This document shows, one piece after another, positions 2,656 to 61,665 of a stretch of 64,000 nucleotides of DNA. A model generated the notes under the pieces. That model saw only the letters and a list, made by a program, of their open reading frames with translations, was not told the DNA's origin and made no database searches. The stretch's first letter is position 1. Each line of letters opens with the position of its first letter. Source of the stretch: Eledone cirrhosa (taxonomy: Eukaryota); NCBI GenBank assembly GCA_964016885.1, contig OZ024740.1:178622001-178686000 (forward strand), given 5' to 3'. The position numbers and the translations under genes were made by a program.

Positions 2656-2678
2656 TATTATTATTATTATTATTATTT
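2656..2678. repeat. (TTA)n tract, tail of copy B and junction to copy A
   Basis: tattattatt... run. Confidence 0.9.
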
Positions 2679-5406
2679 GCATTTATCTTGCTTTATGTTT
2701 ATACGAGTTATCACCAAGTCACAACCAGTGACCTCAAGAGACAACAAGGTCCGCCATGTTCAAGAAAGAACACACATATTCACACATGCATCCTTAGTGT
2801 TTAGACTTGTGATGTACTTATATTGACAGGATCTTCCTTAGTATATGGGCAGTTCCCATTAGTACTATCTTTTGTATTTCTCCTATACGCGGGTTTCCTG
2901 GGATTTGCGATAAGTAGTCGTTAGACCCCTTAGGTATCATTCCCAGAGCGCCTACAACCACTGGTATTGTTTTAGTTCTCAATTTCCACATTTTTCCAAT
3001 TTCTATCTCCAGGTCCTTATACTTGCTCAATTTTTCAAATGTTTTTATAGATACATTCTTGTCTATTGGAACAGACATATCAATTAGCAGGCATACCCTC
3101 CTTTGAAAGTCCTTCAATATTATATCAGGTCTATTTGCATCTATTTTTCGGTCTGTTTGGATGCTAAAGTTCCACAAGATTGAGATGTGATCTTTTTCAA
3201 GTATGGGAGGTGGTTGATGCTCCCACCAATTCTTTTGATGGGGCAGGTCAAAATGCTTACACATTATCCAATGTATGTATTGTGCAGCTCTGTCATGCCT
3301 GTTTAGGTATTCGGTTGGAGCTATAGGACTGCACATTGAAATTATATGGTCAATGGTCTCTGGTTGTTTTTTGCATACACGGCATAATGGGCTGCACCCA
3401 TTTTTTATTATGTTGGCTTGGTAATTTTTTGTTGGCAGACACTGATCTTGTGCGGAGATAATCAGTCCTTCAGTCTCCGATTTCAGTCCAGAGGATGCCA
3501 ACCACTGATGGGTTAAAGTTTTGTCAACATCAGGATTGTTAGCTCGCTCTGGGTATTTTCCATACAGAGGCTTTTCTTGCCATTTCTTAGCCAGTTTCTG
3601 TAGCAGTTCTTTCTTTGCAGTTACTTTTACCTGCTTTGCTTTTTCTGTGTTTTCCATTTCAGCAGTAAATGGGACTTCTGAAATTTGTAGTCCATTACTG
3701 TATCTTTGTGCATCTTTTGTAATGGAATATGATCTTTTGGTGCTTTCGTGTTTCAAAACGAGTTTGATCATCCAATCATGTGATTCCCTTAGATATGTGG
3801 ATAATCCAATTGTTGCAGTTTTCAACGCAATGTCTAACTGGATTAACCCACGTCCTCCTTCTTTCCTAGGGAGATATATTCTATCTATGTCTGCCTTAGG
3901 GTGATGCATTCTGTGCATGGTTAAGAATTTTCGGATTTTTGTATCGAGCCTACGGATCTCTGTGCTTGACCAGTTGATGACATTGTAACTGTAGGTTACT
4001 ACTGGTATGGCAAGCGTGTTTATGGCATCGATCCTATTCCTTGCATTCAATTCCGTTCTTAAGATTGCTCTGACTCTGCGGTAACATTCCTTCCTTATCC
4101 TTTCCCTCATTGTCGAGTGCTTGATTCCGTCTCCTTCACAAACACCTAGATATTTGTAAGTTTGTTCTTGATCAAGCTCTCTTATCACGTTCCCCCGATC
4201 AAGATTAATGTCTCAACTCTTCAGCAGCTTTCCTCTGGTGAACGTTGCTTTGGCGCATTTATCCAGTCCAAACTCCATTTTAATGTCATCACTGAACTGC
4301 TTCACAGTGGATAATAGCCCTTGCAATTGTTCATCATTTTTTGCGAATAGTTTCAGGTCATCCATGTAGAACAGGTGATTAATGGTTTTGTCATAGACTC
4401 TATATCCATGTTTTGTTTCATTGAGCATTTTACTTAATGGTATAAGTGCGATGCAGAATAAAAGCGGTGATAAAGAGTCACCCTGAAAAATTCCACAATT
4501 AATGTTAACTTCTCCAGCTTCCAGTGATTTTGTTTCACTATTCAAAAAGAGTGTCGTTCTCCATGTCCTCATACTGAATGACAAAAACCTCCTGACAACG
4601 GGGGATATTTTGAAAATCTCTAAACATTTTTCAATCCAACTGTGTGGCAAACTATCAAATGCTTTTTTATAATCTATCCAAGCAATCGATAGATTTTTGT
4701 GTCTATTATGACAATCTTCCAGTATCATTTTGTTAACCAGAAGCTGATCCTTACAGCCATATGAGCCTCGTTTACACCCTTTCTGCTCAACGGGAAATAG
4801 GTCATTTGTTATCAGGTGGTCATATGTGTATTCAGTTAGGACTGATGTTAAAATTTTATACATTGTGGTCAAGCAGGTTATCGGTCTGTAATTTTTGGGA
4901 TTGTTTGTCTCATCATTCTTCGGTAGCAGGAATGTAATGCCGTTAACTAGCCATGATGGTATCTTTTCTGGCTCCTTAACTATTTCATTGTAAAGTTGGG
5001 CCAACAGCTCATGAGACTCTGTGAAGGCATTTATCCAAAAGTTTTGTATTTTGTCTTTTCCTGGGGATTTCCATTTGCTGGTTTTTCTTAGAGCCAAGCG
5101 CAGCTGTTCAACTGTTATATTTTCCCATGTTTGTTCTTCAAGGTGAGCTGTTTCTTTCATTTGTCTGTCTATCCATGGGGCATGTATGTTATGAACTTTT
5201 TCTTCGGCCCAGATCTTTTCCCAGAATTCTTGCACTTCCTCCTTGGGTGGTATTGATTTAGCAGTTATTGTTGACTTACCAATTTTTCTGTAGAAGTTTC
5301 TTTGGTTGTTTTTGAACATATTATTGTCCTTATAGAATCTAGATCGTTTTTCAAAGCGCCTTATACGAGCAGCTTTGGCCGACACTTTTTGCTTGATTGT
5401 TTCTAT
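2677..5406 (-). mobile_element. R4/Dong-type element family D1, copy B (5'-truncated, complete 3' UTR)
   Basis: RT motifs (KSPGKD, NYRPITCL, DYKKAFD, GIFQGDSLSP, FYMDD), CCHC finger CRVC..ETIDHIISMC, RHD and RPD..LID RLE motifs. 3' UTR matches 61480-61616 in reverse. Confidence 0.92.
2818..5406 (-). pseudogene. RT-RLE ORF split by a single nonsense codon at 4213-4215
   Basis: ORFs 4213..5481 and 2818..4188 are in the same frame. TGA here versus TCA in copy A. Confidence 0.85.
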
Positions 5407-5408
5407 TG

Positions 5409-5409
<1 letters not shown>

Positions 5410-5472
<63 letters not shown>
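5410..5472. repeat. (TTA)n microsatellite between head-to-head Dong and Tx1 elements
   Basis: Perfect trinucleotide run. Confidence 0.95.
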
Positions 5473-5685
5473 GAATGCCATGGTTGACGGAGGCTCGGCT
5501 CTGTAAGGTATAGTAATTTTTAACCGTTAAAACAATTGTAAATTGTTTAAAACTTGAACCAAATTGTTGATAAAGACACCCTCCTCCTCGTGAGAGGGGT
5601 CTTTCTGTCCGTTATTTGGCCCTTCGGGGTTAAATAACCAGTTATTGGGGTTTTGTACCCAAAATTTCATTTTAAACAAAAAAAC

Positions 5686-7785
5686 ATGGCTACCAAAAAG
5701 AAATTTCATACGTCACTCCCACTCATTCCGTCTTCTTCTTCCTCAATCATCACTACAGCAGAGAGAAGATTGTCTCTCTCCCTCCCTTCTTTAAATGTGT
5801 CTCTCTCCCTCCCTTCTCTTTCGCAAGCGACGAAAGAAAAGAAAAGTCTCGTGCAAAGCGTGCAAGGTTTCTCCACGACGACGACGACAGCGACGAAACA
5901 GGTGTGCGGGAAATACGAAAACCCAGTTCATTCGTCTGACGTCAGGAATAATAGCAGTAGCAGCCGTAATAACAACAGCAACAGTGACAATGAAAACAAC
6001 AGTAGCAGCCGCAACAGCATCACCAGCAGCATAAACAACAACAGCATAAACAACAACAGCATTAGCAGCAACACCAACAACAACCACAGCAACAGCGGCG
6101 GAGGCAGTAGTCGTAGTACCTGCAGCAACAAAAGTACCAGCAGCTCTGACGACAACAACAACAGCAGAGAAAAACCAATCTCATTTGCAGGTATTGCGAA
6201 AAACTTGGAAACAATCCTCATAACAAATGAGGAATTAGAGGAAGCGAAGAAGATGGTGACAAAGAACGGACACCGAGCAATCTGCAAGGCAGCGAAAAAT
6301 TTTTTCGAAACCCAAGAGCACTGTACGGTCACGTACCGTACTGTAAGTACAAAATCCCGTAGGGTGGAAAGAGCCACAGAGGCCCAAATACAAAAAGCCT
6401 TGGGGTCTGTGTGGCAGAGGAAAACGCACATCACCCGAGGCAAAAAATACGCCACCGTAGACGTACTTTTTGCCACACCCCAGGAGGCAAAGGCCCAATC
6501 AGTAGTGACCCTAAGGAGCGAGGAAATGGTGTTGGTGCCCTCCTACTGCGGGCAAAAAATTGTGAGGGTCAAACTGACCCACGTCCCCCCCGGAATGACC
6601 CCTTCTTGGCTGGCCGCGTCTGTCCTCGTCGGAATCGAGGACAAAACAACTGTACTGCAAGTACAGAAAAAAGTAAGAGAAGATTGGGTCGGCTCCTCCA
6701 TTGAGATGCTAATCCAAACCAACCAGGAGTGCATCGAAGCTATCCCGGATGTGATAGACTTCGATAACGGCACTCAACTGCCCATAAGTGTTGAGGGCAA
6801 ACGCCCGAAATGCTTTCGCTGTGGATCGAAGACTCACCTCAGGGCCTTCTGCAACGAGAAGACCCTGAGAAAGGAGAAAACCCCCCTCCTTCCGAATCCG
6901 GCTCCACGGCTACCAGCAACAGGACAAGCGGCAACCAGGAACGATAGGTCCGTGGCACCCATACCCACTCCACGGAAATCAAAGACAGCAGCAGCAGTGG
7001 AAATATTAACAACAACAACAGCAATACCAAATGCAGCTGCAACAGAGACTCCAGTGCAAACATCACCAACAACAACAAGTGAAAGAGTGGAGCTGGTACC
7101 CCTCCCCGACCTTACAGAATCAGACATGGAGTGTGAGGTGGGAGAGGGATGGCAAAAGGTCTCAAGAAGGCACAAACGCAGAAGCAGCGCATCGTCGCCT
7201 TTGAAAAGGGAGGAAAGAAATGAGAAAAGGGTAAAGTCTACTGCAAAGAGACCCACAGCAGCAACACCACCAACACCATCACCACCCACACCAGCACCAC
7301 CATCACCACCGGCGACAACCCCACCGCCAACAACACCTTCAACACCACAAGCACCAACATCGCAAACACAACAACAAAACACACACACCCAGCAACAACG
7401 ACAAGAAAATAGCAGAACCACACCCCACCCCCAGAAAAACAAATGCACGGCAATAAACACACACAACAAGAAACTAATGACTTACATAATTGAACACACA
7501 GACATTTCACAACAGGACTACATAATACCAGCACCAATCAAAACGCCAACTAACATAAGACTGCTAAAAATAGCACAGAAACAATACACAAACATTAAAA
7601 CGAAATTCCCCAACGCAGTTGGTGATTTCAGGGACCTAGGAGGAACCATTAATCGAAGAGTATATTCAGACATTCTCTTAGAAGAGCCGACGACCAGCCG
7701 AAGGGACGATTCAACGGTCCCTTCACCAGACGATCAAGTGAAAAGGGATGTAAAAACCATCCCTCCTCTACCAAAAGTACGGTAA
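5686..7785 (+). CDS. ORF1 gag-like nucleic-acid-binding protein (Asn/Ser-rich N-terminus, one CCHC knuckle, Pro/Thr-rich C-terminus)
   Basis: First ATG at 5686 (MATKKK). Contains CFRCGSKTHLRAFC (CX2CX4HX4C). Lies upstream of APE-RT. Confidence 0.88.
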   Translation: MATKKKFHTSLPLIPSSSSSIITTAERRLSLSLPSLNVSLSLPSLSQATKEKKSLVQSVQGFSTTTTTATKQVCGKYENPVHSSDVRNNSSSSRNNNSNSDNENNSSSRNSITSSINNNSINNNSISSNTNNNHSNSGGGSSRSTCSNKSTSSSDDNNNSREKPISFAGIAKNLETILITNEELEEAKKMVTKNGHRAICKAAKNFFETQEHCTVTYRTVSTKSRRVERATEAQIQKALGSVWQRKTHITRGKKYATVDVLFATPQEAKAQSVVTLRSEEMVLVPSYCGQKIVRVKLTHVPPGMTPSWLAASVLVGIEDKTTVLQVQKKVREDWVGSSIEMLIQTNQECIEAIPDVIDFDNGTQLPISVEGKRPKCFRCGSKTHLRAFCNEKTLRKEKTPLLPNPAPRLPATGQAATRNDRSVAPIPTPRKSKTAAAVEILTTTTAIPNAAATETPVQTSPTTTSERVELVPLPDLTESDMECEVGEGWQKVSRRHKRRSSASSPLKREERNEKRVKSTAKRPTAATPPTPSPPTPAPPSPPATTPPPTTPSTPQAPTSQTQQQNTHTQQQRQENSRTTPHPQKNKCTAINTHNKKLMTYIIEHTDISQQDYIIPAPIKTPTNIRLLKIAQKQYTNIKTKFPNAVGDFRDLGGTINRRVYSDILLEEPTTSRRDDSTVPSPDDQVKRDVKTIPPLPKVR

Positions 7786-7820
7786 GTGGTCTTTCCCATC
7801 TTTTCCACTCTATTTTAAAC

Positions 7821-10800
7821 ATGACCTCACTCAGAATAGGCAGCATAAATGCGCGTGGCTTGGGGTCGTCATGGAAGCAGGGTCACCTGCTCAACGACCT
7901 CAGGTCACTAAACATAGATGTAGTGGCCATCAGCGAGACCAGAATCTCCGAAGCACGGGCCTTCGCACCGATCTTCGGCGGCTACGATGTGTACGCATCT
8001 CCCAGCCGTCCTGGATCGGGTGGAGGAGTTGCTGTGCTTTTTCGGAGAGGTTTGGATCTCGCCATACGGGCCATCTTCCTGGACCCAGAGGGTAAGCTGG
8101 TGGTGCTGGACGTGACCAGCGGAGACGGGCAAGCTTTCAGGCTAGTGGCCGTCTATGCCCCGACAGGAGCAGGGCGGCCTGATTTCTTCCGGCGTCTGGA
8201 GACCTTTCTTGGAACGTCCCGCTCTTTAGTGTTAGTGGGCGACTGGAACGGGATCTTAGATGCACGCTGGGACTGTGTGGGATTAGCGGATAGGGGTGGA
8301 GGGTGCAAGAGCCTCACCAACCTGCTCAGGCGTTTTGAACTGTCTGACAGGTACCGATTGGATTTCCCGAATGTGCCAATGTGGACTTGGACAAACCGCA
8401 TAGGGTCATCCAGATCATATCTAGATAGAGTATTTTGTAGGGAAATAGATAGGTCTAGCATAGGCTGTCCACAATTCAAGATAGTCAGCTACACGGACCA
8501 CAAATTCGTGATCTGTGTGCTTGACTTAGATAGGCTTCATAGACGAGGACCCGGCTACTGGAAGCTAAACGCGTCCTTACCAGCGCGCAAGGCCTACAGA
8601 GACCGGATTAGCGAACTAGTTAAGCGGGCGTTGACGGGGGCCATCGTCAACAACAAGTGGTGGTTTGCTCTGAAAAGAGCGATTAGAATAGAATCGATTA
8701 GGTTTAGTAAGGCTTTAGCAATAGAGAAAAATAGAGCAGAGGGAGAACTAGTTAGAAAATTAGACGAGGCGCTTAGCAAAGGCATTGCGACCGACGTGCT
8801 TGCGGCGAAATTGGCCCTTGACCAATTCTTCAATGCAAAGCACGAAGGCTGCGTTGTCAGAGCTAGGGTGCGTGCTCTCAGACACGAGGGGACGAAAGCC
8901 GTTCAATGGGCCCGAGTGGCGGAGGCGCGTCGTGGCAACAAAGCCACGATCCGGTCTTTGGTGGACCACGACGGGCGCATGCTACTCGATCCCGGGCAAA
9001 TGTGTGAAGCTTTTCAGCGACACTTCACTCAGCTGTTCGGGGGCAGCGGGGGGCCGGGTAGAGGGATGGACTTTAGTGTCTACCTCGACGGACTGCCGCG
9101 GCTCTCGGCCACTGAGGCGAAGTGTTGCGAAAAGCCGATAACAGCCGCTGAAGTACGGGAGGCAATGACTGGCTGCACAAGGGGTAAATCGCCTGGTTTG
9201 GATGGTCTGCCCTATGAACTTTACGTACAGATGCCAGACTTGTTCGGAGGCCTCTTGGCGGACGTCTACTGCAACTGGCAACAGAACGGGAGAATTCCCA
9301 GTTCTGTGAGCCGAGGAGCGGTGGCACTGCTGAGAAAGGATCCGAACAAGGGGGATAACATAGACAATTTCCGGCCCATAACTCTGCTAAACACAGAGTT
9401 TAAGATTTTGGCCAAGGTGCTAGCAAAGAGGTTGGCGCTTGTCGTTGGTGGTCTGGTGGGAGAGGCGCAGACATGCGCCATTCCCGACAGATCCATCCAC
9501 GACAACCTCCACCTCATGCGATACATCGTAGAGAGGGTAGCTAGGGAACCTGGCACGGGTGGGTCCTTGATCAATTTAGATCAGTCGAAAGCTTTCGATA
9601 GGGTCGACCATCGTTACCTAGCGGCAGTCCTGAGGGCGGCTGGCTTTGGGCCCGTCTTCAGAGGCTGGATCGCTGCCATGCACAGCGACATCTGCTCTGT
9701 GGTGAGAGTGAACGGTCACCTGTCGGAACCGTTCAACATCATGCGCTCGGTCCGCCAAGGATGTCCCCTCTCGTCCCTCTTGTACGTATTGACTCTCGAG
9801 CCATTACTGCACAAACTGGAGACGTTGAGGGGAGTCCCGCGCGAACTAGGATGCGGAAGATCCGTGTCAGCATATGCGGACGATGTCACCGTAGTGGTGT
9901 CGAACGCCAAACACATCGAGGCGATCGGCACTACACTAAGAGAATACGAAGCGGTGACAGGAGCAATGATCAACCAGGAAAAGTCAGTGGGCCTGCAGCT
10001 CGGCACCTGGAGAGGCAGGTCCATGCCGTCCAACAGCGTCGTCGGGCGCTGGACGGACGGACCGGTTAAATTGCTAGGGGTCTGGTTCGGTCCGGACCTC
10101 CAGACGGACAAAAACTGGGACGAGGTGACGAGCAGGGTGGCTTCTCTCACCCAGAAATGGGCGGAGAGGAAGCTATCCCTGAAAGGTCGAGCGGAGGTGG
10201 CTAACGCGTACATCGCGTCTGTCATCTGCTACCGCCTAACCGTCGTACCTTGTCCTAAGCCTCGCCTGACTGCGCTGGAGCGTTTGCTCTTTCGCTTTTT
10301 GTGGAAGGGACGTGCTCCGATGGTCAGGCGGTCCATCTGTTGTCAACACCCGCTACGTGGAGGGCTGGGCATGCCGTGGCTGATGATGCGCAGGCACGCG
10401 CTCAGGCTACGACATCTCCACCTCTTCCTCGACGGTGATCAGGTGTGGTCGCCGTTTGCTAGACGCGTTTTTCCCCAGCTCGTTTCCTTGACGGAGCTGC
10501 AGTCCTGGGTCAAGCGAAGACCGAGAGGGAGCGCCTGGAGACTGGAATGTCTTCAGGCGCTCACAGCCCTCGACCAATCGGGCAATGTGATCGGTGGAAA
10601 CTCCACCTCGGCGTTCTATAGAGGATTAGTGGAGGGGAAGAGCGACGACGTACTTGGGGAAACTCTAGGCGTCGACGAAAATCAACTAGCCAATCTCTTC
10701 GGAAGAACTTTCGGGCCGGGGCCTATGGACAACTTCCAGAAATCTCTGGCCTGGCAGTGCTACCGAGGAGCCTTGCCAGTTCGGGATAAACTCTACAGGC

Positions 10801-11240
10801 ATGGAGGTGCCGTCAGCCGGGCATGTCCGAGATGCGCGCAGGGCGACGAAACCGTCCTGCACGCACTCGTCCAGTGTCCGAAAATTGCTGACTTGTGGGT
10901 TTATGTCGAACACCTGCTGTCGCGTTTAGGACGGATCCAGCTATCATCTGAGTCTATCGTGAGGATTGCCCCGCCCTCCTCCTTTAGCCGGGAAGGGCAG
11001 GCAGTTTTTATCTGTCTGGTGGCCATGGCGAAAGAGATAGTATGGTGGACACGTTTGAAAGGGCTGAAGACGAGCACTTACCTCTTCGGTGATGCTCTGA
11101 TTGACTTTTTCAAATTTCATTTGAAAAGGAAAATCAGAGTAGAGAAGGAAGTGCTCTCTTCCCAGCATTTTGTTGAAAGATGGGTGAGAGAAGCAAGAAT
11201 GGCCCGAGTGAATGGGCCGACTCTGAGTATATATCTGTAA
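7821..11240 (+). CDS. ORF2: APE endonuclease - reverse transcriptase - C-terminal zinc finger, 1139 aa
   Basis: SINARGL, ISET, VGDWN, SYLDRVF and TDH (APE); GYWKLN, KSPGLDG, FRPITLLN, DQSKAFD, RQGCPLS and YADD (RT); CPRC..ETVLHALVQC. Confidence 0.95.
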   Translation: MTSLRIGSINARGLGSSWKQGHLLNDLRSLNIDVVAISETRISEARAFAPIFGGYDVYASPSRPGSGGGVAVLFRRGLDLAIRAIFLDPEGKLVVLDVTSGDGQAFRLVAVYAPTGAGRPDFFRRLETFLGTSRSLVLVGDWNGILDARWDCVGLADRGGGCKSLTNLLRRFELSDRYRLDFPNVPMWTWTNRIGSSRSYLDRVFCREIDRSSIGCPQFKIVSYTDHKFVICVLDLDRLHRRGPGYWKLNASLPARKAYRDRISELVKRALTGAIVNNKWWFALKRAIRIESIRFSKALAIEKNRAEGELVRKLDEALSKGIATDVLAAKLALDQFFNAKHEGCVVRARVRALRHEGTKAVQWARVAEARRGNKATIRSLVDHDGRMLLDPGQMCEAFQRHFTQLFGGSGGPGRGMDFSVYLDGLPRLSATEAKCCEKPITAAEVREAMTGCTRGKSPGLDGLPYELYVQMPDLFGGLLADVYCNWQQNGRIPSSVSRGAVALLRKDPNKGDNIDNFRPITLLNTEFKILAKVLAKRLALVVGGLVGEAQTCAIPDRSIHDNLHLMRYIVERVAREPGTGGSLINLDQSKAFDRVDHRYLAAVLRAAGFGPVFRGWIAAMHSDICSVVRVNGHLSEPFNIMRSVRQGCPLSSLLYVLTLEPLLHKLETLRGVPRELGCGRSVSAYADDVTVVVSNAKHIEAIGTTLREYEAVTGAMINQEKSVGLQLGTWRGRSMPSNSVVGRWTDGPVKLLGVWFGPDLQTDKNWDEVTSRVASLTQKWAERKLSLKGRAEVANAYIASVICYRLTVVPCPKPRLTALERLLFRFLWKGRAPMVRRSICCQHPLRGGLGMPWLMMRRHALRLRHLHLFLDGDQVWSPFARRVFPQLVSLTELQSWVKRRPRGSAWRLECLQALTALDQSGNVIGGNSTSAFYRGLVEGKSDDVLGETLGVDENQLANLFGRTFGPGPMDNFQKSLAWQCYRGALPVRDKLYRHGGAVSRACPRCAQGDETVLHALVQCPKIADLWVYVEHLLSRLGRIQLSSESIVRIAPPSSFSREGQAVFICLVAMAKEIVWWTRLKGLKTSTYLFGDALIDFFKFHLKRKIRVEKEVLSSQHFVERWVREARMARVNGPTLSIYL

Positions 11241-11501
11241 ACTAAAGGTGGAAAACTGGGAGAGGGCACTTGCCTTGGTGGTCAGGGTCATTGTGGCTTT
11301 TTACTGGGCTTTCTCCACAAATGTCCCTCCGAAGTCTCCCCCCTATTGGGGAATTTTTCATTGTTATTTTCATTGTTATTTTTGTTACATCCTCTGTTTT
11401 TGTTTTTTTTACACGCAGAAATGCCCATTTGTACCGTCCTGCATTGTCCTGCACTGTCCTTAATGTCTACTTTATGTAAACCCTTGTGGTTAATAAAGAA
11501 A

Positions 11502-11503
<2 letters not shown>

Positions 11504-11542
<39 letters not shown>
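11504..11542. repeat. (ATT)n spacer between tandem Tx1 copies
   Basis: Perfect run. Confidence 0.95.
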
Positions 11543-11755
11543 GAATGCCATGGTTGACGGAGGCTCGGCTCTGTAAGGTATAGTAATTTTTAACCGTTAA
11601 AACAATTGTAAATTGTTTAAAACTTGAACCAAATTGTTGATAAAGACACCCTCCTCCTCGTGAGAGGGGTCTTTCTGTCCGTTATTTGGCCCTTCGGGGT
11701 TAAATAACCAGTTATTGGGGTTTTGTACCCAAAATTTCATTTTAAACAAAAAAAC

Positions 11756-13861
11756 ATGGCTACCAAAAAGAAATTTCATACGTCACTCCCACTCATTCCG
11801 TCTTCTTCTTCCTCAATCATCACTACAGCAGAGAGAAGATTGTCTCTCTCCCTCCCTTCTTTAAATGTGTCTCTCTCCCTCCCTTCTCTTTCGCAAGCGA
11901 CGAAAGAAAAGAAAAGTCTCGTGCAAAGCGTGCAAGGTTTCTCCACGACGACGACGACAGCGACGAAACAGGTGTGCGGGAAATACGAAAACCCAGTTCA
12001 TTCGTCTGACGTCAGGAATAATAGCAGTAGCAGCCGTAATAACAACAGCAACAGTGACAATGAAAACAACAGTAGCAGCCGCAACAGCATCACCAGCAGC
12101 ATAAACAACAACAGCATAAACAACAACAGCATTAGCAGCAACACCAACAACAACCACAGCAACAGCGGCGGAGGCAGTAGTCGTAGTACCTGCAGCAACA
12201 AAAGTACCAGCAGCTCTGACGACAACAACAACAGCAGAGAAAAACCAATCTCATTTGCAGGTATTGCGAAAAACTTGGAAACAATCCTCATAACAAATGA
12301 GGAATTAGAGGAAGCGAAGAAGATGGTGACAAAGAACGGACACCGAGCAATCTGCAAGGCAGCGAAAAATTTTTTCGAAACCCAAGAGCACTGTACGGTC
12401 ACGTACCGTACTGTAAGTACAAAATCCCGTAGGGTGGAAAGAGCCACAGAGGCCCAAATACAAAAAGCCTTGGGGTCTGTGTGGCAGAGGAAAACGCACA
12501 TCACCCGAGGCAAAAAATACGCCACCGTAGACGTACTTTTTGCCACACCCCAGGAGGCAAAGGCCCAATCAGTAGTGACCCTAAGGAGCGAGGAAATGGT
12601 GTTGGTGCCCTCCTACTGCGGGCAAAAAATTGTGAGGGTCAAACTGACCCACGTCCCCCCCGGAATGACCCCTTCTTGGCTGGCCGCGTCTGTCCTCGTC
12701 GGAATCGAGGACAAAACAACTGTACTGCAAGTACAGAAAAAAGTAAGAGAAGATTGGGTCGGCTCCTCCATTGAGATGCTAATCCAAACCAACCAGGAGT
12801 GCATCGAAGCTATCCCGGATGTGATAGACTTCGATAACGGCACTCAACTGCCCATAAGTGTTGAGGGCAAACGCCCGAAATGCTTTCGCTGTGGATCGAA
12901 GACTCACCTCAGGGCCTTCTGCAACGAGAAGACCCTGAGAAAGGAGAAAACCCCCCTCCTTCCGAATCCGGCTCCACGGCTACCAGCAACAGGACAAGCG
13001 GCAACCAGGAACGATAGGTCCGTGGCACCCATACCCACTCCACGGAAATCAAAGACAGCAGCAGCAGTGGAAATATTAACAACAACAACAGCAATACCAA
13101 ATGCAGCTGCAACAGAGACTCCAGTGCAAACATCACCAACAACAACAAGTGAAAGAGTGGAGCTGGTACCCCTCCCCGACCTTACAGAATCAGACATGGA
13201 GTGTGAGGTGGGAGAGGGATGGCAAAAGGTCGCAAGAAGGCACAAACGCAGAAGCAGCGCATCGTCGCCTTTGAAAAGGGAGGAAAGAAATGAGAAAAGG
13301 GTAAAGTCTACTGCAAAGAGACCCACAGCAGCAACACCACCAACACCATCACCACCCACACCAGCACCACCATCACCACCGGCGACAACCCCACCGCCAA
13401 CAACACCTTCAACACCACCACCACAAGCACCAACATCGCAAACACAACAACAAAACACACACACCCAGCAACAACGACAAGAAAATAGCAGAACCACACC
13501 CCACCCCCAGAAAAACAAATGCACGGCAATAAACACACACAACAAGAAACTAATGACTTACATAATTGAACACACAGACATTTCACAACAGGACTACATA
13601 ATACCAGCACCAATCAAAACGCCAACTAACATAAGACTGCTAAAAATAGCACAGAAACAATACACAAACATTAAAACGAAATTCCCCAACGCAGTTGGTG
13701 ATTTCAGGGACCTAGGAGGAACCATTAATCGAAGAGTATATTCAGACATTCTCTTAGAAGAGCCGACGACCAGCCGAAGGGACGATTCAACGGTCCCTTC
13801 ACCAGACGATCAAGTGAAAAGGGATGTAAAAACCATCCCTCCTCTACCAAAAGTACGGTAA
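11756..13861 (+). CDS. ORF1 gag-like protein, copy 2
   Basis: As copy 1, with two extra Pro and one S>A change. Confidence 0.88.
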   Translation: MATKKKFHTSLPLIPSSSSSIITTAERRLSLSLPSLNVSLSLPSLSQATKEKKSLVQSVQGFSTTTTTATKQVCGKYENPVHSSDVRNNSSSSRNNNSNSDNENNSSSRNSITSSINNNSINNNSISSNTNNNHSNSGGGSSRSTCSNKSTSSSDDNNNSREKPISFAGIAKNLETILITNEELEEAKKMVTKNGHRAICKAAKNFFETQEHCTVTYRTVSTKSRRVERATEAQIQKALGSVWQRKTHITRGKKYATVDVLFATPQEAKAQSVVTLRSEEMVLVPSYCGQKIVRVKLTHVPPGMTPSWLAASVLVGIEDKTTVLQVQKKVREDWVGSSIEMLIQTNQECIEAIPDVIDFDNGTQLPISVEGKRPKCFRCGSKTHLRAFCNEKTLRKEKTPLLPNPAPRLPATGQAATRNDRSVAPIPTPRKSKTAAAVEILTTTTAIPNAAATETPVQTSPTTTSERVELVPLPDLTESDMECEVGEGWQKVARRHKRRSSASSPLKREERNEKRVKSTAKRPTAATPPTPSPPTPAPPSPPATTPPPTTPSTPPPQAPTSQTQQQNTHTQQQRQENSRTTPHPQKNKCTAINTHNKKLMTYIIEHTDISQQDYIIPAPIKTPTNIRLLKIAQKQYTNIKTKFPNAVGDFRDLGGTINRRVYSDILLEEPTTSRRDDSTVPSPDDQVKRDVKTIPPLPKVR

Positions 13862-13896
13862 GTGGTCTTTCCCATCTTTTCCACTCTATTTTAAAC

Positions 13897-16800
13897 ATGA
13901 CCTCACTCAGAATAGGCAGCATAAATGCGCGTGGCTTGGGGTCGTCATGGAAGCAGGGTCACCTGCTCAACGACCTCAGGTCACTAAACATAGATGTAGT
14001 GGCCATCAGCGAGACCAGAATCTCCGAAGCACGGGCCTTCGCACCGATCTTCGGCGGCTACGATGTGTACGCATCTCCCAGCCGTCCTGGATCCGGTGGA
14101 GGAGTTGCTGTACTTTTTCGGAGAGGTTTGGATCTCGCCATACGGGCCATCTTCCTGGACCCAGAGGGTAAGCTGGTGGTGCTGGACGTGACCAGCGGAG
14201 ACGGGCAAGCTTTCAGGCTAGTGGCCGTCTATGCCCCGACAGGAGCAGGGCGGCCTGATTTCTTCCGGCGTCTGGAGACCTTTCTTGGAACGTCCCGCTC
14301 TTTAGTGTTAGTGGGCGACTGGAACGGGATCTTAGATGCACGCTGGGACTGTGTGGGATTAGCGGATAGGGGTGGAGGGTGCAAGAGCCTCACCAACCTG
14401 CTCAGGCGTTTTGAACTGTCTGACAGGTACCGATTGGATTTCCCGAATGTGCCAATGTGGACTTGGACAAACCGCATAGGGTCATCCAGATCATATCTAG
14501 ATAGAGTATTTTGTAGGGAAATAGATAGGTCTAGCATAGGCTGTCCACAATTCAAGATAGTCAGCTACACGGACCACAAATTCGTGATCTGTGTGCTTGA
14601 CTTAGATAGGCTTCATAGACGAGGACCCGGCTACTGGAAGCTAAACGCGTCCTTACCAGCGCGCAAGGCCTACAGAGACCGGATTAGCGAACTAGTTAAG
14701 CGGGCGTTGACGGGGGCCATCGTCAACAACAAGTGGTGGTTTGCTCTGAAAAGAGCGATTAGAATAGAATCGATTAGGTTTAGTAAGGCTTTAGCAATAG
14801 AGAAAAATAGAGCAGAGGGAGAACTAGTTAGAAAATTAGACGAGGCGCTTAGCAAAGGCATTGCGACCGACGTGCTTGCGGCGAAATTGGCCCTTGACCA
14901 ATTCTTCAATGCAAAGCACGAAGGCTGCGTTGTCAGAGCTAGGGTGCGTGCTCTCAGACACGAGGGGACGAAAGCCGTTCAATGGGCCCGAGTGGCGGAG
15001 GCGCGTCGTGGCAACAAAGCCACGATCCGGTCTTTGGTGGACCACGACGGGCGCATGCTACTCGATCCCGGGCAAATGTGTGAAGCTTTTCAGCGACACT
15101 TCACTCAGCTGTTCGGGGGCAGCGGGGGGCCGGGTAGAGGGATGGACTTTAGTGTCTACCTCGACGGACTGCCGCGGCTCTCGGCCACTGAGGCGAAGTG
15201 TTGCGAAAAGCCGATAACAGCCGCTGAAGTACGGGAGGCAATGACTGGCTGCACAAGGGGTAAATCGCCTGGTTTGGATGGTCTGCCCTATGAACTTTAC
15301 GTACAGATGCCAGACTTGTTCGGAGGCCTCTTGGCGGACGTCTACTGCAACTGGCAACAGAACGGGAGAATTCCCAGTTCTGTGAGCCGAGGAGCGGTGG
15401 CACTGCTGAGAAAGGATCCGAACAAGGGGGATAACATAGACAATTTCCGGCCCATAACTCTGCTAAACACAGAGTTTAAGATTTTGGCCAAGGTGCTAGC
15501 AAAGAGGTTGGCGCTTGTCGTTGGTGGTCTGGTGGGAGAGGCGCAGACATGCGCCATTCCCGACAGATCCATCCACGACAACCTCCACCTCATGCGATAC
15601 ATCGTAGAGAGGGTAGCTAGGGAACCTGGCACGGGTGGGTCCTTGATCAATTTAGATCAGTCGAAAGCTTTCGATAGGGTCGACCATCGTTACCTAGCGG
15701 CAGTCCTGAGGGCGGCTGGCTTTGGGCCCGTCTTCAGAGGCTGGATCGCTGCCATGCACAGCGACATCTGCTCTGTGGTGAGAGTGAACGGTCACCTGTC
15801 GGAACCGTTCAACATCATGCGCTCGGTCCGCCAAGGATGTCCCCTCTCGTCCCTCTTGTACGTATTGACTCTCGAGCCATTACTGCACAAACTGGAGACG
15901 TTGAGGGGAGTCCCGCGCGAACTAGGATGCGGAAGATCCGTGTCAGCATATGCGGACGATGTCACCGTAGTGGTGTCGAACGCCAAACACATCGAGGCGA
16001 TCGGCACTACACTAAGAGAATACGAAGCGGTGACAGGAGCAATGATCAACCAGGAAAAGTCAGTGGGCCTGCAGCTCGGCACCTGGAGAGGCAGGTCCAT
16101 GCCGTCCAACAGCGTCGTCGGGCGCTGGACGGACGGACCGGTTAAATTGCTAGGGGTCTGGTTCGGTCCGGACCTCCAGACGGACAAAAACTGGGACGAG
16201 GTGACGAGCAGGGTGGCTTCTCTCACCCAGAAATGGGCGGAGAGGAAGCTATCCCTGAAAGGTCGAGCGGAGGTGGCTAACGCGTACATCGCGTCTGTCA
16301 TCTGCTACCGCCTAACCGTCGTACCTTGTCCTAAGCCTCGCCTGACTGCGCTGGAGCGTTTGCTCTTTCGCTTTTTGTGGAAGGGACGTGCTCCGATGGT
16401 CAGGCGGTCCATCTGTTGTCAACACCCGCTACGTGGAGGGCTGGGCATGCCGTGGCTGATGATGCGCAGGCACGCGCTCAGGCTACGACATCTCCACCTC
16501 TTCCTCGACGGTGATCAGGTGTGGTCGCCGTTTGCTAGACGCGTTTTTCCCCAGCTCGTTTCCTTGACGGAGCTGCAGTCCTGGGTCAAGCGAAGACCGA
16601 GAGGGAGCGCCTGGAGACTGGAATGTCTTCAGGCGCTCACAGCCCTCGACCAATCGGGCAATGTGATCGGTGGAAACTCCACCTCGGCGTTCTATAGAGG
16701 ATTAGTGGAGGGGAAGAGCGACGACGTACTTGGGGAAACTCTAGGCGTCGACGAAAATCAACTAGCCAATCTCTTCGGAAGAACTTTCGGGCCAGGGCCT

Positions 16801-17316
16801 ATGGACAACTTCCAGAAATCTCTGGCCTGGCAGTGCTACCGAGGAGCCTTGCCAGTTCGGGATAAACTCTACAGGCATGGAGGTGCCGTCAGCCGGGCAT
16901 GTCCGAGATGCGCGCAGGGCGACGAAACCGTCCTGCACGCACTCGTCCAGTGTCCGAAAATTGCTGACTTGTGGGTTTATGTCGAACACCTGCTGTCGCG
17001 TTTAGGACGGATCCGGCTATCATCTGAGTCCATCGTGAGGATTGCCCCGCCCTCCTCCTTTAGCCGGGAAGGGCAGGCAGTTTTTATCTGCCTGGTGGCC
17101 ATGGCGAAAGAGATAGTATGGTGGACACGTTTGAAAGGGCTGAAGACGAGCACTTACCTCTTCGGTGATGCTCTGATTGACTTTTTCAAATTTCATTTGA
17201 AAAGGAAAATCAGAGTAGAGAGGGAAGTGCTCTCTTCCCAGCATTTTGTTGAAAGATGGGTGAGAGAAGCAAGAATGGCCCGAGTGAATGGGCCTACTCT
17301 GAGTATATATCTGTAA
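13897..17316 (+). CDS. ORF2 APE-RT-ZnF, copy 2, 1139 aa
   Basis: As copy 1, with Q>R and K>R changes near the C-terminus. Confidence 0.95.
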   Translation: MTSLRIGSINARGLGSSWKQGHLLNDLRSLNIDVVAISETRISEARAFAPIFGGYDVYASPSRPGSGGGVAVLFRRGLDLAIRAIFLDPEGKLVVLDVTSGDGQAFRLVAVYAPTGAGRPDFFRRLETFLGTSRSLVLVGDWNGILDARWDCVGLADRGGGCKSLTNLLRRFELSDRYRLDFPNVPMWTWTNRIGSSRSYLDRVFCREIDRSSIGCPQFKIVSYTDHKFVICVLDLDRLHRRGPGYWKLNASLPARKAYRDRISELVKRALTGAIVNNKWWFALKRAIRIESIRFSKALAIEKNRAEGELVRKLDEALSKGIATDVLAAKLALDQFFNAKHEGCVVRARVRALRHEGTKAVQWARVAEARRGNKATIRSLVDHDGRMLLDPGQMCEAFQRHFTQLFGGSGGPGRGMDFSVYLDGLPRLSATEAKCCEKPITAAEVREAMTGCTRGKSPGLDGLPYELYVQMPDLFGGLLADVYCNWQQNGRIPSSVSRGAVALLRKDPNKGDNIDNFRPITLLNTEFKILAKVLAKRLALVVGGLVGEAQTCAIPDRSIHDNLHLMRYIVERVAREPGTGGSLINLDQSKAFDRVDHRYLAAVLRAAGFGPVFRGWIAAMHSDICSVVRVNGHLSEPFNIMRSVRQGCPLSSLLYVLTLEPLLHKLETLRGVPRELGCGRSVSAYADDVTVVVSNAKHIEAIGTTLREYEAVTGAMINQEKSVGLQLGTWRGRSMPSNSVVGRWTDGPVKLLGVWFGPDLQTDKNWDEVTSRVASLTQKWAERKLSLKGRAEVANAYIASVICYRLTVVPCPKPRLTALERLLFRFLWKGRAPMVRRSICCQHPLRGGLGMPWLMMRRHALRLRHLHLFLDGDQVWSPFARRVFPQLVSLTELQSWVKRRPRGSAWRLECLQALTALDQSGNVIGGNSTSAFYRGLVEGKSDDVLGETLGVDENQLANLFGRTFGPGPMDNFQKSLAWQCYRGALPVRDKLYRHGGAVSRACPRCAQGDETVLHALVQCPKIADLWVYVEHLLSRLGRIRLSSESIVRIAPPSSFSREGQAVFICLVAMAKEIVWWTRLKGLKTSTYLFGDALIDFFKFHLKRKIRVEREVLSSQHFVERWVREARMARVNGPTLSIYL

Positions 17317-17576
17317 ATTAAAGGTGGAAAACTGGGAGAGGGCACTTGCCTTGGTGGTCAGGGTCATTGTGGCTTTTTACTGGACTTTCTCCACAAATGT
17401 CCCTCCGAAGTCTCCCCCCTATTGGGGAATTTTTCATTGTTATTTTCATTGTTATTTTTGTTACATCCTCTATTTTTGTTTTTTTACACGCAGAAATGCC
17501 CATTTGTACCGTCCTGCATTGTCCTGCACTGTCCTTAATGTCTACTTTATGTAAACCCTTGTGGTTAATAAAGAAA

Positions 17577-17578
<2 letters not shown>

Positions 17579-17662
<84 letters not shown>
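17579..17662. repeat. (ATT)n tract
   Basis: Perfect run. Confidence 0.95.
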
Positions 17663-17665
<3 letters not shown>

Positions 17666-17819
17666 CAGTATCGGTAGAGCGTCAGACTCCAAGCATTGAA
17701 GCATAGAATTACGGCCCTTTATGATCTGAGTTCAAATGCTGCCGAGGTTAACTTTATCTTTCATCCTTACGGGGTCGATAAAATAAAGTACCAGTAATGC
17801 ACTGGTGTAATTGCTGGCC

Positions 17820-17822
<3 letters not shown>
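17663..17822 (+). mobile_element. tRNA-derived SINE family S1, truncated copy between (ATT)n tracts
   Basis: A-box-like TATCGGTAGAGCG, B-box-like GAGTTCAAAT, central TTTCATCCTTACGGGGTCGATAAAATAAAGTACCAG (resembles the MetaSINE-type domain). Three more copies in the window. Confidence 0.8.
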
Positions 17823-17884
<62 letters not shown>

Positions 17885-17885
<1 letters not shown>

Positions 17886-18117
17886 TCTCCCTGGGTGCCC
17901 TAGAAGCGCAGAGTGGTTCAGGATTGGTGGGGTACCCGAGTCACCCCAGGGGAATTTATTTTGTTATATTTATGCATAGTTTATTTTATATTTTTATATT
18001 TTAATTGTTAAATTAGTCTTGCCATTGTGCACTTTTACTCAACCTTATTGTAAACCCCCACTGTCCCTGTCTTTGTATTGTCCCCTACTTGTCGGCCCTT
18101 GTGGCTAATAAATGAAA

Positions 18118-18119
<2 letters not shown>
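17885..18119 (+). mobile_element. 3' UTR-only fragment of a Tx1 element related to family T3
   Basis: GTTCAGGATTGGTGGGGTAC and CCCTTGTGGCTAATAAATGAAATC match the reverse complement of 61666-61910. Flanked by (ATT)n. Confidence 0.8.
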
Positions 18120-20356: not shown

Positions 20357-21192
<836 letters not shown>

Positions 21193-46000: not shown

Positions 46001-46470
46001 GGCGGTGATAGAAAACGATCAGGTGAAGGTGCTGTGGGATTTTAGGATACAGACGGACAAGAAACTGGAACACAATAGACCTGACCTGGTGGTTGTAAAC
46101 AAAGAAAAAAGATCGTGCCTGATTGTGGATGTGGCCTGCCCATTCGACACGAGAGTGCAAGAGAAGGAGAGGTAAAAAATTAACCGATACCAGGACTTAA
46201 AGTGGGAGGTAAAAAGGATTTGGAACTGCCATGAAGTCAAAGTGATCCCGATTGTCATAGGCGCACTAGGGACTATCTCAAAAAGTTTCCAGGGATGGTT
46301 AAAGAAAATTGGCCCCTTCACGCTTTTTGGAACGCTTCAAAAGGCATGCTTGCTGGGAACAGCAAGAACACTCCGATACGTCTTGAATATCTGAGGCTGC
46401 AGGTAGTGGCTTGATATTCAATTTAACAAACTTTCCAGTTAACTAACATCAATGACTGAGACTCAAAGAG
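43029..46470 (+). mobile_element. R4/Dong-type element family D2, full-length but degenerate
   Basis: R4-type N-terminus (WTKELN..VMQCY...GYRKRM..IW), RT and RLE fragments separated by stops, an internal deletion near 45300, (TAA)n on both sides. Confidence 0.9.
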
Positions 46471-46495: not shown

Positions 46496-49400
46496 GATTT
46501 CTTTATTGGCGACAAGGCCTGACATCATGAAAAACATCACAGACGGAACAGAACGGTACGATGTGGGTTTTGTGCGTGTAAATATTTTTATTATTTATAT
46601 AAGAAAAGAAAAAAGACATAAAACATATATATATATAAACAATAAAATGAAAATTGAAACAATGAAAATTCCCCAATAGGGCGAAAACCACACAAAATAC
46701 CACGGCCACCCTGGCAACCAGGGCAAGAGCCCTCTCTCAATTTTTCCATCTCTCAAACTACAGACGTATATTCAGAGTGGTCCCGTTCACTCGGACCATT
46801 ATCGCTACATTCACCCACCTTTCAACAAACTTGCTAGAAGGCAGCACTTGCTTCTCCACCCTGATTTTCCTCTTCAAGTGAAACTTGAAAAAGTTAATTA
46901 GGGATTCGCCGAAGAAGAAAGTGTTTGTCTTTAATCCTTTTAACCTTGTCCACCACACAATCTCTTTCACCATGGCCACCAGGCAGATGAAAACCGCCTG
47001 CCCTTCCTCCTCAAAGGAAGACGGCGAGACCATCTGCACAATGGACTCAGTCAACAACCGGTCAGTCCCACACGTGACAGCAACTGTTCGACATAGCTCC
47101 ACAAGTCAGCAATGCTCGGGCACTGAACGAGTGCGTGCACAACGGTTTCATCGCTATGCGCGCATCTCGGATAGGCTCGGCTGAAGGCACTTCCGTGCCT
47201 GTAGATCTTATCGCGAACCGGCAGCGCTCCCCGGTAGCACTGCCAGGCCAGGTATTTTTAGAAGTTATCCATAGTCCCCGGGCTGAAAGTTCTCCGAAAG
47301 AGAGCAAACAGCTGATCTTCTTCGACGCCCAGGATCTCTCCGAGAATGTCGTCGCTCTTCCCCTCCACTAGTCCTCTATAGAACGCCGAGGTGGATGTTC
47401 CACCGATACTGGTTCCCAACTGGGAGAGGGCAGTGAGCGCCTGGAGACATTCCAGTTTCCAAGAGCTATCCCTCGGTCTTTTTCTCACCCAGGACTGCAG
47501 CTCCGTCAAGGAGACGAGCTGTGGCAAAATGTGCCTGGCGAACGGCGACCACACTCGTTCACCATCAAGGAAGCACCAGAGATGTCGCAGCCTCAGCGCA
47601 TGTTTGCGCATCATCAGCCATGGCATGCCCAGTCCTCCACGCAACGGGTGTTGACAGCAGATGGATCGTCTGACCATGGGAGCGCGTCCCTTCCACAAAA
47701 AGCGGAAGAGGAGGCGCTCCATTTTGGTGAGAGTTGGGCTGGAGCAAGGGACGATGGTGAAGCGGTAGCAGATGACGGATGCGATGTACGCATTCGCCAC
47801 TTCCGCCCGGCCTTTCAGGGACAGCTTCCTCTCAGCCCATTTCTGGGTGAGGGAGGCCAACCTGCTCGTCACCTCGTTCCAGTTTTTCTCCATCTGGAGG
47901 TCCTGTCCGAACCAGACCCCGAGCAATTTAACCGGTCCGTCTGTCCATCGCCCCACGACGCTGTCGGACGGCATGGACTTGCCTCTCCAGGTGCCTAGCT
48001 GCAAGCCCACCGACTTTTCCTGGTTTATCTTTGCTCCTGTCACCGCTTCGTATTCCTTGAGAGCGGTGCCGAGCATCTGGACGTGTCTGGTGCTCGGCAC
48101 CACCACGGTGACGTCGTCAGCGTAAGCCGACTCGGATTTCCCACATCCTAGTTCGCGTGGGACACCCCTCATCGCCCCCAGTTTGTGCAGTAACGGCTCG
48201 AGAGCCAATACGTACAAGTGGGTCGAGAGGGGACAACCCTGGCGGACTGAGCGCATGATGCTGAACGGCTGCGACAGGTGACCGTTCACCCTCACAACTG
48301 AGCAGATGTCGCTGTACATTGCTGCGACCCAACGCCTGAAAACGGGCCCGAAACCGGCTGCCTCGAGGACCGCCGCCAGGTACCGATGGTCGACCCTATC
48401 GAATGCTTTGGATTGATCCAAGTTGATCAGGGCTCCACCCTTGCCAGGTTCGTTAACCACCCTCTCTATGATGTATCGCATGAGGTGGAGGTTGTCGTGT
48501 ATGGATTTGTCCGGAATGGCGCATGTCTGCGCCTCTCCTACCAGACCCTTGACGACAAGCGCCAACCTCGTTGCTAACACCTTCGCCAAAATCTTGAACT
48601 CTGTGTTTAGCAGGGTTATGGGCCTGAAATTATCAATAACATCCCCCTTGTTCGGGTCTTTTCTCAGCAGCACCACTGCTCCCCGGCTCACAAAACTGGG
48701 AATGCTCCCGTTCTGCTGCTAGTTGCAGTAGACGTCTGCCAAGAGGTCACCGAACAAGTCTGGCATAAATGCATAAAGCTCGTAGGGCAGACCATCTAAT
48801 CCTGGCGATTTACCTCTTGTGCAGTTAGCCATCGCTTCCCGTATTTCACCGGCTGTTATTGGCTTTTCGCAACACTGTGTTGCGGTCGTCGAGAGCCGAG
48901 GCAGTCCGTCGAGGTATGCACTGAAGTCCATGCCCCGATCCGGGCCGCCGCCGCTCCCAATCAGTTCAGCAAAGTGCTGCTGAAAAGCTTCACACATCCA
49001 CTCGGGTTCGAGCATCACACCCGTTTTGGTCAGACAAAGACCGAATTGTGGCTTTATTGCCACGTCGCGCCTCTGCCACCCGAGCCCATTGGACGGCTTT
49101 TGTCCCCTCGTGTTTCAGAGCACGCGCTCTAGCTCTGACAACGCAGCCTTCGTGTTTTGCGTTGAAGAATTGGTCGAGTGCCAATCTCGCCGCAAGCACG
49201 TCGGTTGCGATGCCTGTCCTAAGCGCCTCTTCTAGCTTTCTGACTAGCTCTCCCTCTACTCTATTTTCCTCTATCACTACTCCTTTGCTAAACTTAATCG
49301 ACTCTACTTTAATTGCCCTTATCAGGGCGAATCACCACCTGTTGTTGACGACCGCTCCCGTCAACGCCTGCTTAACTAATACGCTAATCCGGTCTCTGTA

Positions 49401-61616: not shown

Positions 61617-61617
61617 C

Positions 61618-61665
<48 letters not shown>

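Follow-up and report, generated by a model that had tools for sequence, protein, structure and literature searches.

A young L1/Tx1-group retrotransposon at ATT sites of the Eledone cirrhosa genome and the composition of its tandem arrays

We analyzed a stretch of 64,000 nucleotides from Eledone cirrhosa (assembly GCA_964016885.1, contig OZ024740.1, positions 178,622,001 to 178,686,000 of the forward strand), hereafter called the window, with the focus on its positions 5473 to 17578. Two full-length copies of a long interspersed element (LINE), designated A and B, lie there head to tail, separated by an ATT repeat. We consider it probable that they represent a young L1/Tx1-group element which inserts at ATT sites, mostly (ATT)n tracts, that its enzyme likely nicks the AAT strand just before ATT, and that a newcomer next to a copy already in place likely obtains the rest of its 5′ part by copying this neighbor.

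Two intact copies of a recently amplified family

Copies A and B are 99.7% identical and differ by 12 substitutions, nine of them within the last 800 bp, as well as by one 6-bp and one 1-bp indel. The initial annotation, made from the sequence of the window, had described two full-length 6.03-kb copies with intact open reading frames (ORF1 and ORF2) and identical termini, which carry (ATT)n at both ends and AATAAA 6 nt before the 3′ end but no poly(A). This description was confirmed for both copies: ORF1 and ORF2 are uninterrupted in each, lengths are as given in Table 1, the termini are identical, and each 3′ end consists of AATAAA, 6 nt, and then ATT, with poly(A) absent. An Rfam scan of the 5′ junction found no ribozyme (sub-threshold matches only), the 3′ untranslated region (UTR) folded no better than shuffled sequences (z 0.02), and ARAGORN found no tRNA within the 64-kb window.

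ORF2 matched the Pfam families Exo_endo_phos, RVT_1, and zf-RVT above the cut-off. Residues of an apurinic/apyrimidinic-type endonuclease (APE) are present (N10, E39, Y112, D141, N143, D202, D226, and H227), as are the reverse transcriptase (RT) motif YADD at 685-688 and a C-terminal CCHC at 1002-1019; the catalytic motifs of both domains, with residue roles as in L1, are thus in place. Human L1 ORF2p (PDB 9k6i, 8uw3) was the best relative in the PDB, by sequence (E = 3e-52) as well as by the fold of the predicted structure (predicted local distance difference test, pLDDT, 85; E = 8e-53), where it ranked far above R2. ORF1 had no Pfam match. The model of its residues 183-395 (pLDDT 93) contains two ferredoxin-like, RRM-like domains ahead of a CCHC knuckle, and its best match was an RRM of nucleolin, with a middling Z of 8.4 (root-mean-square deviation 2.4, 77 residues aligned). 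An ORF1 with RRM and CCHC, as opposed to Transposase_22, has been linked to Tx1 in non-mammalian animals (PMC5203782). The predicted domains thus fit a Tx1-type ORF1 instead of Transposase_22.

The nearest named proteins in the RT region came from Argonauta hians (73% identity), sea turtles (37-43%), and a wrasse (38%); a fragment of the element also matched an Octopus sinensis protein, and a search of the ESM Atlas returned only APE-RT clusters without names or taxa. In a quick RT tree of 57 rows, which was built without named Tx1, Keno, Kibi, Koshi, Mutsu, or Dewa reference sequences, the element formed a clade with Argonauta, its sister elements in the window, and 12 unnamed proteins (SH support 100). 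This clade fell within a larger group that also contained the turtle and wrasse sequences (SH 94, unstarred), separate from the plant and algal rows and far from the window's elements with a restriction-like endonuclease (RLE). By its APE-RT-CCHC ORF2, L1-like fold, 5′ truncation, and target-site duplications, the element is a non-LTR (long terminal repeat) retrotransposon of the L1/Tx1 group. Membership in the Tx1 clade itself is likely, on the basis of the anatomy of ORF1 and ORF2. Three other assignments were rejected: (i) a mammalian-type L1, by the lack of poly(A) and of a Transposase_22 ORF1; (ii) the Dong/R4 clade of single-ORF RLE elements, by the two ORFs with APE and the tree position; and (iii) Kibi or Koshi, with their (TC)n or (TTC)n targets, since the target here is ATT. 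(CTT)n was seen only as a neighbor within compound tracts (e.g. loci L053, L055, and L265).

Termini were counted by exact pattern match in the 3.0-Gb genome, which yielded 1604 copies of the 5′ 26-mer and 6294 of the 3′ 32-mer, an excess that demonstrates 5′ truncation. The endonuclease protein was 100% identical in at least 150 copies, 135 of these 150 in frames of at least 1139 amino acids (aa); since the genome protein search filled up with identical copies, the count is a lower bound and covers this family only. Both ORFs were intact in 43 of 86 aligned full-length copies. ORF2 variants common to at least three copies comprised 24 synonymous and 9 non-synonymous changes, against 70 and 98 for rare variants. 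The 35 copies within 1% of A showed a mean pairwise divergence of 0.77%, which at the octopus rate quoted in PMC13282606 corresponds to an age of the order of a million years. Judged from identical endonucleases, intact ORFs, and low divergence in the assembled sequence, the family has amplified recently. At least three sister families with differing 5′ UTRs were found (L038, L056, L042, and L290-L319); their ORF1 proteins are 34-56% identical, and all begin with G directly after ATT. Four loci (L182, L184, L257, and L258) carry a different 5′ part joined to the family's ORF2 at position 2265, which suggests swaps of ORF1. Near-identical kilobase pieces of the element also occurred at low depth in sequencing runs X6 and X7, labeled as other organisms, and may be carry-over or environmental DNA.

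Table 1. Coordinates of the LINE copies and neighboring features in the window
Feature	Position	Strand	Remarks
RLE-type (Dong/R4-like) LINE, 5′-truncated	2678..5412	-	head against the 5′ tract of copy A
(ATT)20 tract 5′ of copy A	5413..5472	+	junction ATT/GAATG
Copy A, full-length LINE, 6031 bp	5473..11503	+	haplotype H1 at 21 of 21 diagnostic sites
Copy A 5′ UTR, 213 nt	5473..5685	+	GC hairpins; fold z -2.35
Copy A ORF1, 699 aa	5686..7785	+	low-complexity ends; two predicted RRM-like domains (about aa 204-290 and 289-373); one CCHC knuckle
Copy A ORF2, 1139 aa	7821..11240	+	APE, RT, C-terminal CCHC
Copy A 3′ UTR	11241..11503	+	AATAAA at 11492-11497, then 6 nt; terminal motif conserved in sister families
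(ATT)13 spacer between A and B	11504..11542	+	
Copy B, full-length LINE, 6036 bp	11543..17578	+	H1 in the 5′ part, H2 over the last ~600-800 bp
Copy B ORF1, 701 aa	11756..13861	+	
Copy B ORF2, 1139 aa	13897..17316	+	99.8% identity to ORF2 of A
(ATT)28 tract 3′ of copy B	17579..17662	+	
Truncated copy of a ~190-bp SINE	17663..17822	+	same ATT-starting duplication signature
3′ fragment of a sister family	17885..18119	+	between (ATT)20 and (ATT)13
T2, decayed full-length sister element	~46496..52031	-	~82% ORF2 identity; ATT tracts at both ends
RLE-type (Dong-like) ORF, uninterrupted, 966 aa	52223-55123	+	RT, CCHC, and PD..D motifs; ends in (TAA)n

ATT as the target site

Genome-wide, 1564 of the 1604 exact 5′ termini (97.5%) directly followed an exact (ATT)3 in one phase. 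For a random position, estimated from 200 kb in 20 evenly spaced stretches of the genome, the corresponding frequency was 0.00035. At the other end, 2961 of 3568 3′ ends (83%) preceded (ATT)3. Both proportions exceed by far the 20% of flanks above which a target preference is assigned in PMC4494074. In a sister family, represented by 1460 exact 5′ termini, all 30 that were checked followed (ATT)3. Among 156 distinct sampled 3′ ends, 150 had downstream sequence beginning with ATT, and a run of seven A's within 45 nt of the end was found in one, where it belongs to the flank. Four A's at the end position occurred at only 16 ends genome-wide, and 11 of the 12 inspected continue into ATT tracts.

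Whether ATT is target or tail was examined on all 29 3′ ends that are followed by ATTA and then a base other than T. Truncated copies in non-repeat DNA are flanked by duplications starting at ATT (13-16 bp at L123, 16-18 bp at L126, and 15-17 bp at L145), and further duplications of this kind were found at the non-repeat sites L146 (8-15 bp), L148 (15 bp), and L266 (13 bp). Moreover, a random sample contained L279, an empty paralog of the L126 site, in which the ATT sequence is already present in a single copy. Owing to these duplications and the empty paralog, we regard it as nearly certain that ATT is the target site. To judge from the sequences, the footprint looks like a short ATTAT/ATTAA site, for which long tracts would be preferred but not required.

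Targeting of ATT, as proposed in the initial annotation, is thereby borne out by the genome-wide flanks, the duplications, and the empty paralog; the argument originally offered for it, i.e. (ATT)n at the 5′ ends of full-length copies, is weaker and does not suffice by itself. In L252, L253, and L265, all of them full-length, the 3′ flank exits the repeat within 4 nt, and yet the 5′ junction is ATT/GAATG with no duplication of about 15 bp. The 5′ tract on full-length copies is therefore no independent proof of targeting, which comes from the truncated copies instead, and it may be partly RNA-borne.

A short interspersed element (SINE) of about 190 bp shows the same footprint. It is represented by 37,435 exact 30-mers in the genome, some of them in 45-bp arrays. 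A recognizable 3′ end was present at 17 of 30 sampled loci (two of the 17 being one element). All 17 flanks downstream of these ends start with ATT and 15 with ATTAT, only two lie in (ATT)3, and duplications of 14-20 bp accompany 11. The last 25 nt of the SINE resemble sister families (matched by 2, 10, 32, and 43 of 2000 shuffles) more closely than this family. Footprint and tail together suggest that the SINE is likely mobilized by this lineage, perhaps by a sister family. As a separate observation, the first 45 bp of the SINE have been amplified into long head-to-tail minisatellite arrays (L201-L206; G000:C1:10533752-10540122).

On these grounds we propose the following course of insertion. 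ORF2p would nick the bottom strand (5′-AAT/-3′) and prime reverse transcription there. The element RNA would run on past its 3′ end into AUU repeats, which would pair with the primer; as AAUAAA lies 6 nt from the end, RNA cleavage would fall inside the tract. Such pairing of read-through AUU would account for the absence of poly(A) as well as for the stronger preference of the LINE than of the SINE for tracts. For truncated cDNAs, joining would usually follow a second nick, made about 15 bp downstream. Full-length RNAs likely begin in AUU repeats too, from which the fixed ATT/GAATG junction would follow. At rare 3′ ends (L320-L331) the terminal few bases are repeated ahead of the ATT tract, a pattern that resembles slippage or re-initiation as reverse transcription starts.

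Alternatively, the RNA might lead the targeting: a loosely specific endonuclease would nick AT-rich DNA, and only nicks whose primer pairs with the AUU end would be used. The position of AAUAAA, which implies AUU read-through, and the far greater preference of the LINE than of the SINE for long tracts speak for this possibility, as do an equivalent proposal for RTE elements (PMC6007223) and the pairing of 3′ read-through in R1 (PMC2718515). However, a sharp ATTAT/ATTAA start and uniform 13-20-bp duplications are common to the SINE and to LINE copies at short targets, and target choice is described as set mainly by the endonuclease (PMC4494074). We thus consider targeting led by the RNA unlikely. 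The two contributions are not exclusive: from the footprints, a part of the endonuclease in specificity appears rather likely, and we lean, with some reserve, towards RNA ends that carry AUU.

That (ATT)n is instead a tail of the element's own making, like the tails of I-factor, L2, or RTE, at untargeted insertions is hardly credible: a repeat is present at most 3′ ends and repeat tails are common in other clades (PMC3747384), but copies at non-repeat sites are tail-less and adjoin only duplicated host sequence starting with ATT, truncated copies too sit in tracts, and the comparison of L126 with L279, where the ATT site already exists, contradicts it.

Several observations weigh against the proposed course of insertion. 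A duplication was called automatically at only 17 of 38 truncated junctions (a set in which one locus is counted twice and about five are internal rearrangements), (ATT)2 lay near the 5′ junction in only 7 of 15 unselected truncated copies, and 17% of the 3′ ends have no exact (ATT)3 after them. The tail of the SINE matches this family poorly (531 of 2000 shuffles). Finally, sequence by itself cannot separate the position of the nick from RNA-DNA pairing.

About half of the 13 tracts of (ATT)5 or longer in 200 kb of random DNA (L270-L289) are directly flanked by a terminus from these LINE families, which may thus create or extend a large part of the genome's ATT microsatellites. At L260, where one tract switches from ATT to AAT, two copies of the family on opposite strands meet tail to tail.

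Tandem arrays and probable copying from the neighbor

The 5′ terminus stood directly after a 3′ end of the family itself in 11 of the first 30 cases, compared with one of 13 random tracts. We compared 30 hand-picked tandem pairs, some of which share members, with a background of 3616 non-tandem pairs. At least the first 1000 bp were identical in 10 of the 30 tandem pairs, A/B included, versus 3 of the 3616 others, and the first 500 bp in 13 versus 26. For the last 1000 bp, the corresponding numbers were 3 of 30 and 32 of 3616, and for the last 500 bp 5 of 30 and 264 of 3616. No tandem pair was identical throughout.

Individual arrays displayed the same asymmetry. L181, L180, and L179 have in common an old 5′ end and a 42-bp interrupted tract, and their 3′ parts become younger going upstream; L180 and L179 show no difference in 1275 bp, although L179 is old and the 3′ part of L180 is young. 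L085 and L084 likewise share an old 5′ part, the upstream copy having the younger 3′ part, and L086 and L172 are mosaics that lie upstream of copies coherent in lineage. Spacers that are not pure ATT (34, 42, and 127 bp) recur at successive junctions. In L250/L251, the 127-bp non-ATT spacer, which starts with ATTAA next to the element end, is repeated between the copies.

The 5′ parts held in common and the duplicated spacers are consistent with a nick upstream of the resident, to which a truncated cDNA would anneal before copying back to the nick. As each insertion would leave a tract on both sides, later copies would land beside a resident; a truncated cDNA could then pair with this homologous neighbor and be extended along its 5′ part and the spacer as far as the nick, giving a full-length mosaic. 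It seems fairly likely to us that such copying from the neighbor accounts for a third or more of the tandems.

Copies A and B are each other's nearest relatives. They are identical over positions 1-1689, including a private 12-bp repeat expansion and a private base at 870, differ within 1690-2564, and are identical again over 3001-5225; A is H1 throughout, and the 3′ end of B is of haplotype H2. Two intact copies head to tail, as first described, stand, whereas two independent insertions do not, because A and B share private variants. From its pattern of differences, the pair reads as a local duplication-mosaic.

Other findings fit copying from the neighbor less well. In A/B it is the downstream copy B, not the upstream copy A, that has the foreign 3′ haplotype; together with the patchy differences, this means that one simple event does not explain the pair. 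Seventeen of the 30 tandem pairs lack an identical first 500 bp, and in our analysis these would fit plain insertion into the neighboring tract, as for R1 arrays. Three pairs (L151/L152, L156/L157, and L164/L163) are identical over their last 1000 bp, as would fit some arrays having undergone unequal crossing-over.

Ordinary recombination might indeed have produced the tandems more generally, through unequal crossing-over between tracts or stacked copies followed by gene conversion or 3′-end replacement, with no copying at insertion. The triples L156-L157-L158 and L151-L152-L153, with the pattern X, hybrid, Y, and the patchy difference profile of A/B are in line with such an origin. We nevertheless judge it improbable, given that no identical pair exists among the 30, that 5′ sharing is far above 3′ sharing at 500 bp, that L180 and L179 agree over 1275 bp despite their different ages, and that the 127-bp spacer begins exactly at the ATTAA site beside the element end. 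An assembly artefact, with two haplotypes or a false duplication set in series, is very improbable: A and B are 99.7% identical and mutual nearest relatives, but their differences are family polymorphisms in haplotype blocks, unlike random errors, and the same layout recurs in 30 pairs differing at 5 to 379 positions.

Neighboring elements, related systems, and significance

Among the other elements of the window (Table 1), T2 had been listed in the initial annotation as a further copy with 5′ (ATT)n. The tract is there, as (ATT)19 followed by two GTT units, but the ORFs of T2 are broken. Each of its two ATT tracts is common to a Dong-like element on the opposite strand: the element at 52223-55123 lies head to head with T2 across (AAT)19, and a frameshifted second Dong-like copy (43625-46391) lies tail to tail with it. 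Likewise, 25 of the 156 sampled 3′ flanks of the APE family run into Dong-like 3′ ends. These single-ORF elements, with CCHC and PD..D motifs and on the opposite strand of the same tracts, correspond to Dong as described, the known R4-lineage element specialized on TAA. Another RLE family, whose identity to the 52223-55123 ORF is about 40%, is represented by two truncated copies (1-2656 and 2678-5412, minus strand) in tandem across (ATT)7, which are 99.5% identical over 2022 bp, and by an older copy at 58330-61642 (plus strand); this family may stack in tandem likewise. The window also contains a (TA)n-rich tract of 594 bp (20357-20950).

Microsatellite-targeting Tx1 families are already known, i.e. 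Kibi at (TC)n, Koshi at (TTC)n, and crocodilian families at (TTCC)n or (TTTC)n (PMC4494074, PMC3812793). They share with the cephalopod family the APE-type enzyme, two ORFs, and microsatellite-specific insertion, and differ in their targets (TC, TTC, TTCC, and TTTC, versus (ATT)n). In the accessible text of PMC3812793, TAA repeats are listed as a target only for Dong. Dong elements (R4 lineage; Bombyx Dong, DongAg, and the snail DongBg) use TAA repeats, the same microsatellite as the APE family; the Dong-like elements found here have one ORF, a C-terminal restriction-like nuclease motif, and the opposite orientation, in contrast to the N-terminal APE of the family. Dong-R4 has been reported in octopus (PMC9115989, PMC13282606), where, in the part of PMC9115989 available, the full-length elements are RTE and Dong only. 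No ATT- or TAA-specific Tx1 family was found in the literature searched, a search to which Repbase, Dfam, Kojima and Fujiwara 2004, and the list in Fig. 3 of PMC4494074 did not belong. Within that scope, ATT as a target of this group was not found described and appears new. For Octopus vulgaris, 13 recently active L1-Tx1 families with 421 insertions have been annotated (PMC13282606), among which may be a relative of this family; a target-site analysis was not found in the accessible text of that paper.

Tandem arrays of Drosophila R1 form when a new copy enters the duplicated target on the 5′ side of one already present, and for melanogaster-type R1, upstream target sequence on the RNA has been proposed to give precise 5′ junctions (PMC2718515). 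R1 resembles the present family in its duplications of about 14 bp, its tandem arrays, and the flanking target sequence proposed to lie on the RNA, and the 5′ junctions of the family resemble those of R1. It differs in its 28S rDNA target and its clade, and copying of a neighbor's 5′ part does not figure in the R1 account as far as accessible in PMC2718515.

Human L1 ORF2p has the same domain order and fold as ORF2 of the family, whereas human L1 has poly(A) and a Transposase_22 ORF1, in place of an RRM-like plus CCHC ORF1 and no poly(A). L1 has a weak target preference for TTTT/AA. In cell culture, recombination of L1 cDNA with homologous genomic L1 is reported to give chimeras and duplications.

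Sequence-specific APE retrotransposons are few, and the family extends the range of their targets by one; it also provides an intact enzyme as a candidate, together with a prediction of where it cuts. The way in which microsatellites are recognized by APE domains has been called poorly understood (PMC3812793), a question that this candidate enzyme makes testable. Its value for genome engineering is limited, since ATT sites are so abundant: tracts of at least five units number about 195,000 in the genome (a rough figure from the 200-kb sample). Tentatively, and at somewhat less than an even chance, a cephalopod Tx1 lineage may have independently evolved an ATT-site APE that cuts the strand opposite to that cut by Dong, has target repeats at either end of its RNA, and routinely turns truncated cDNAs into intact full-length mosaics by copying a resident neighbor, so that tandem arrays would act as built-in recombination and repair, while the same enzyme would drive a very large SINE family. 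If true, neighbor-templated completion of 5′ parts would explain the unusually high share of full-length copies (1604 5′ versus 6294 3′ ends) and the mosaic lineages of the family, and it would bias age estimates based on divergence from the consensus.

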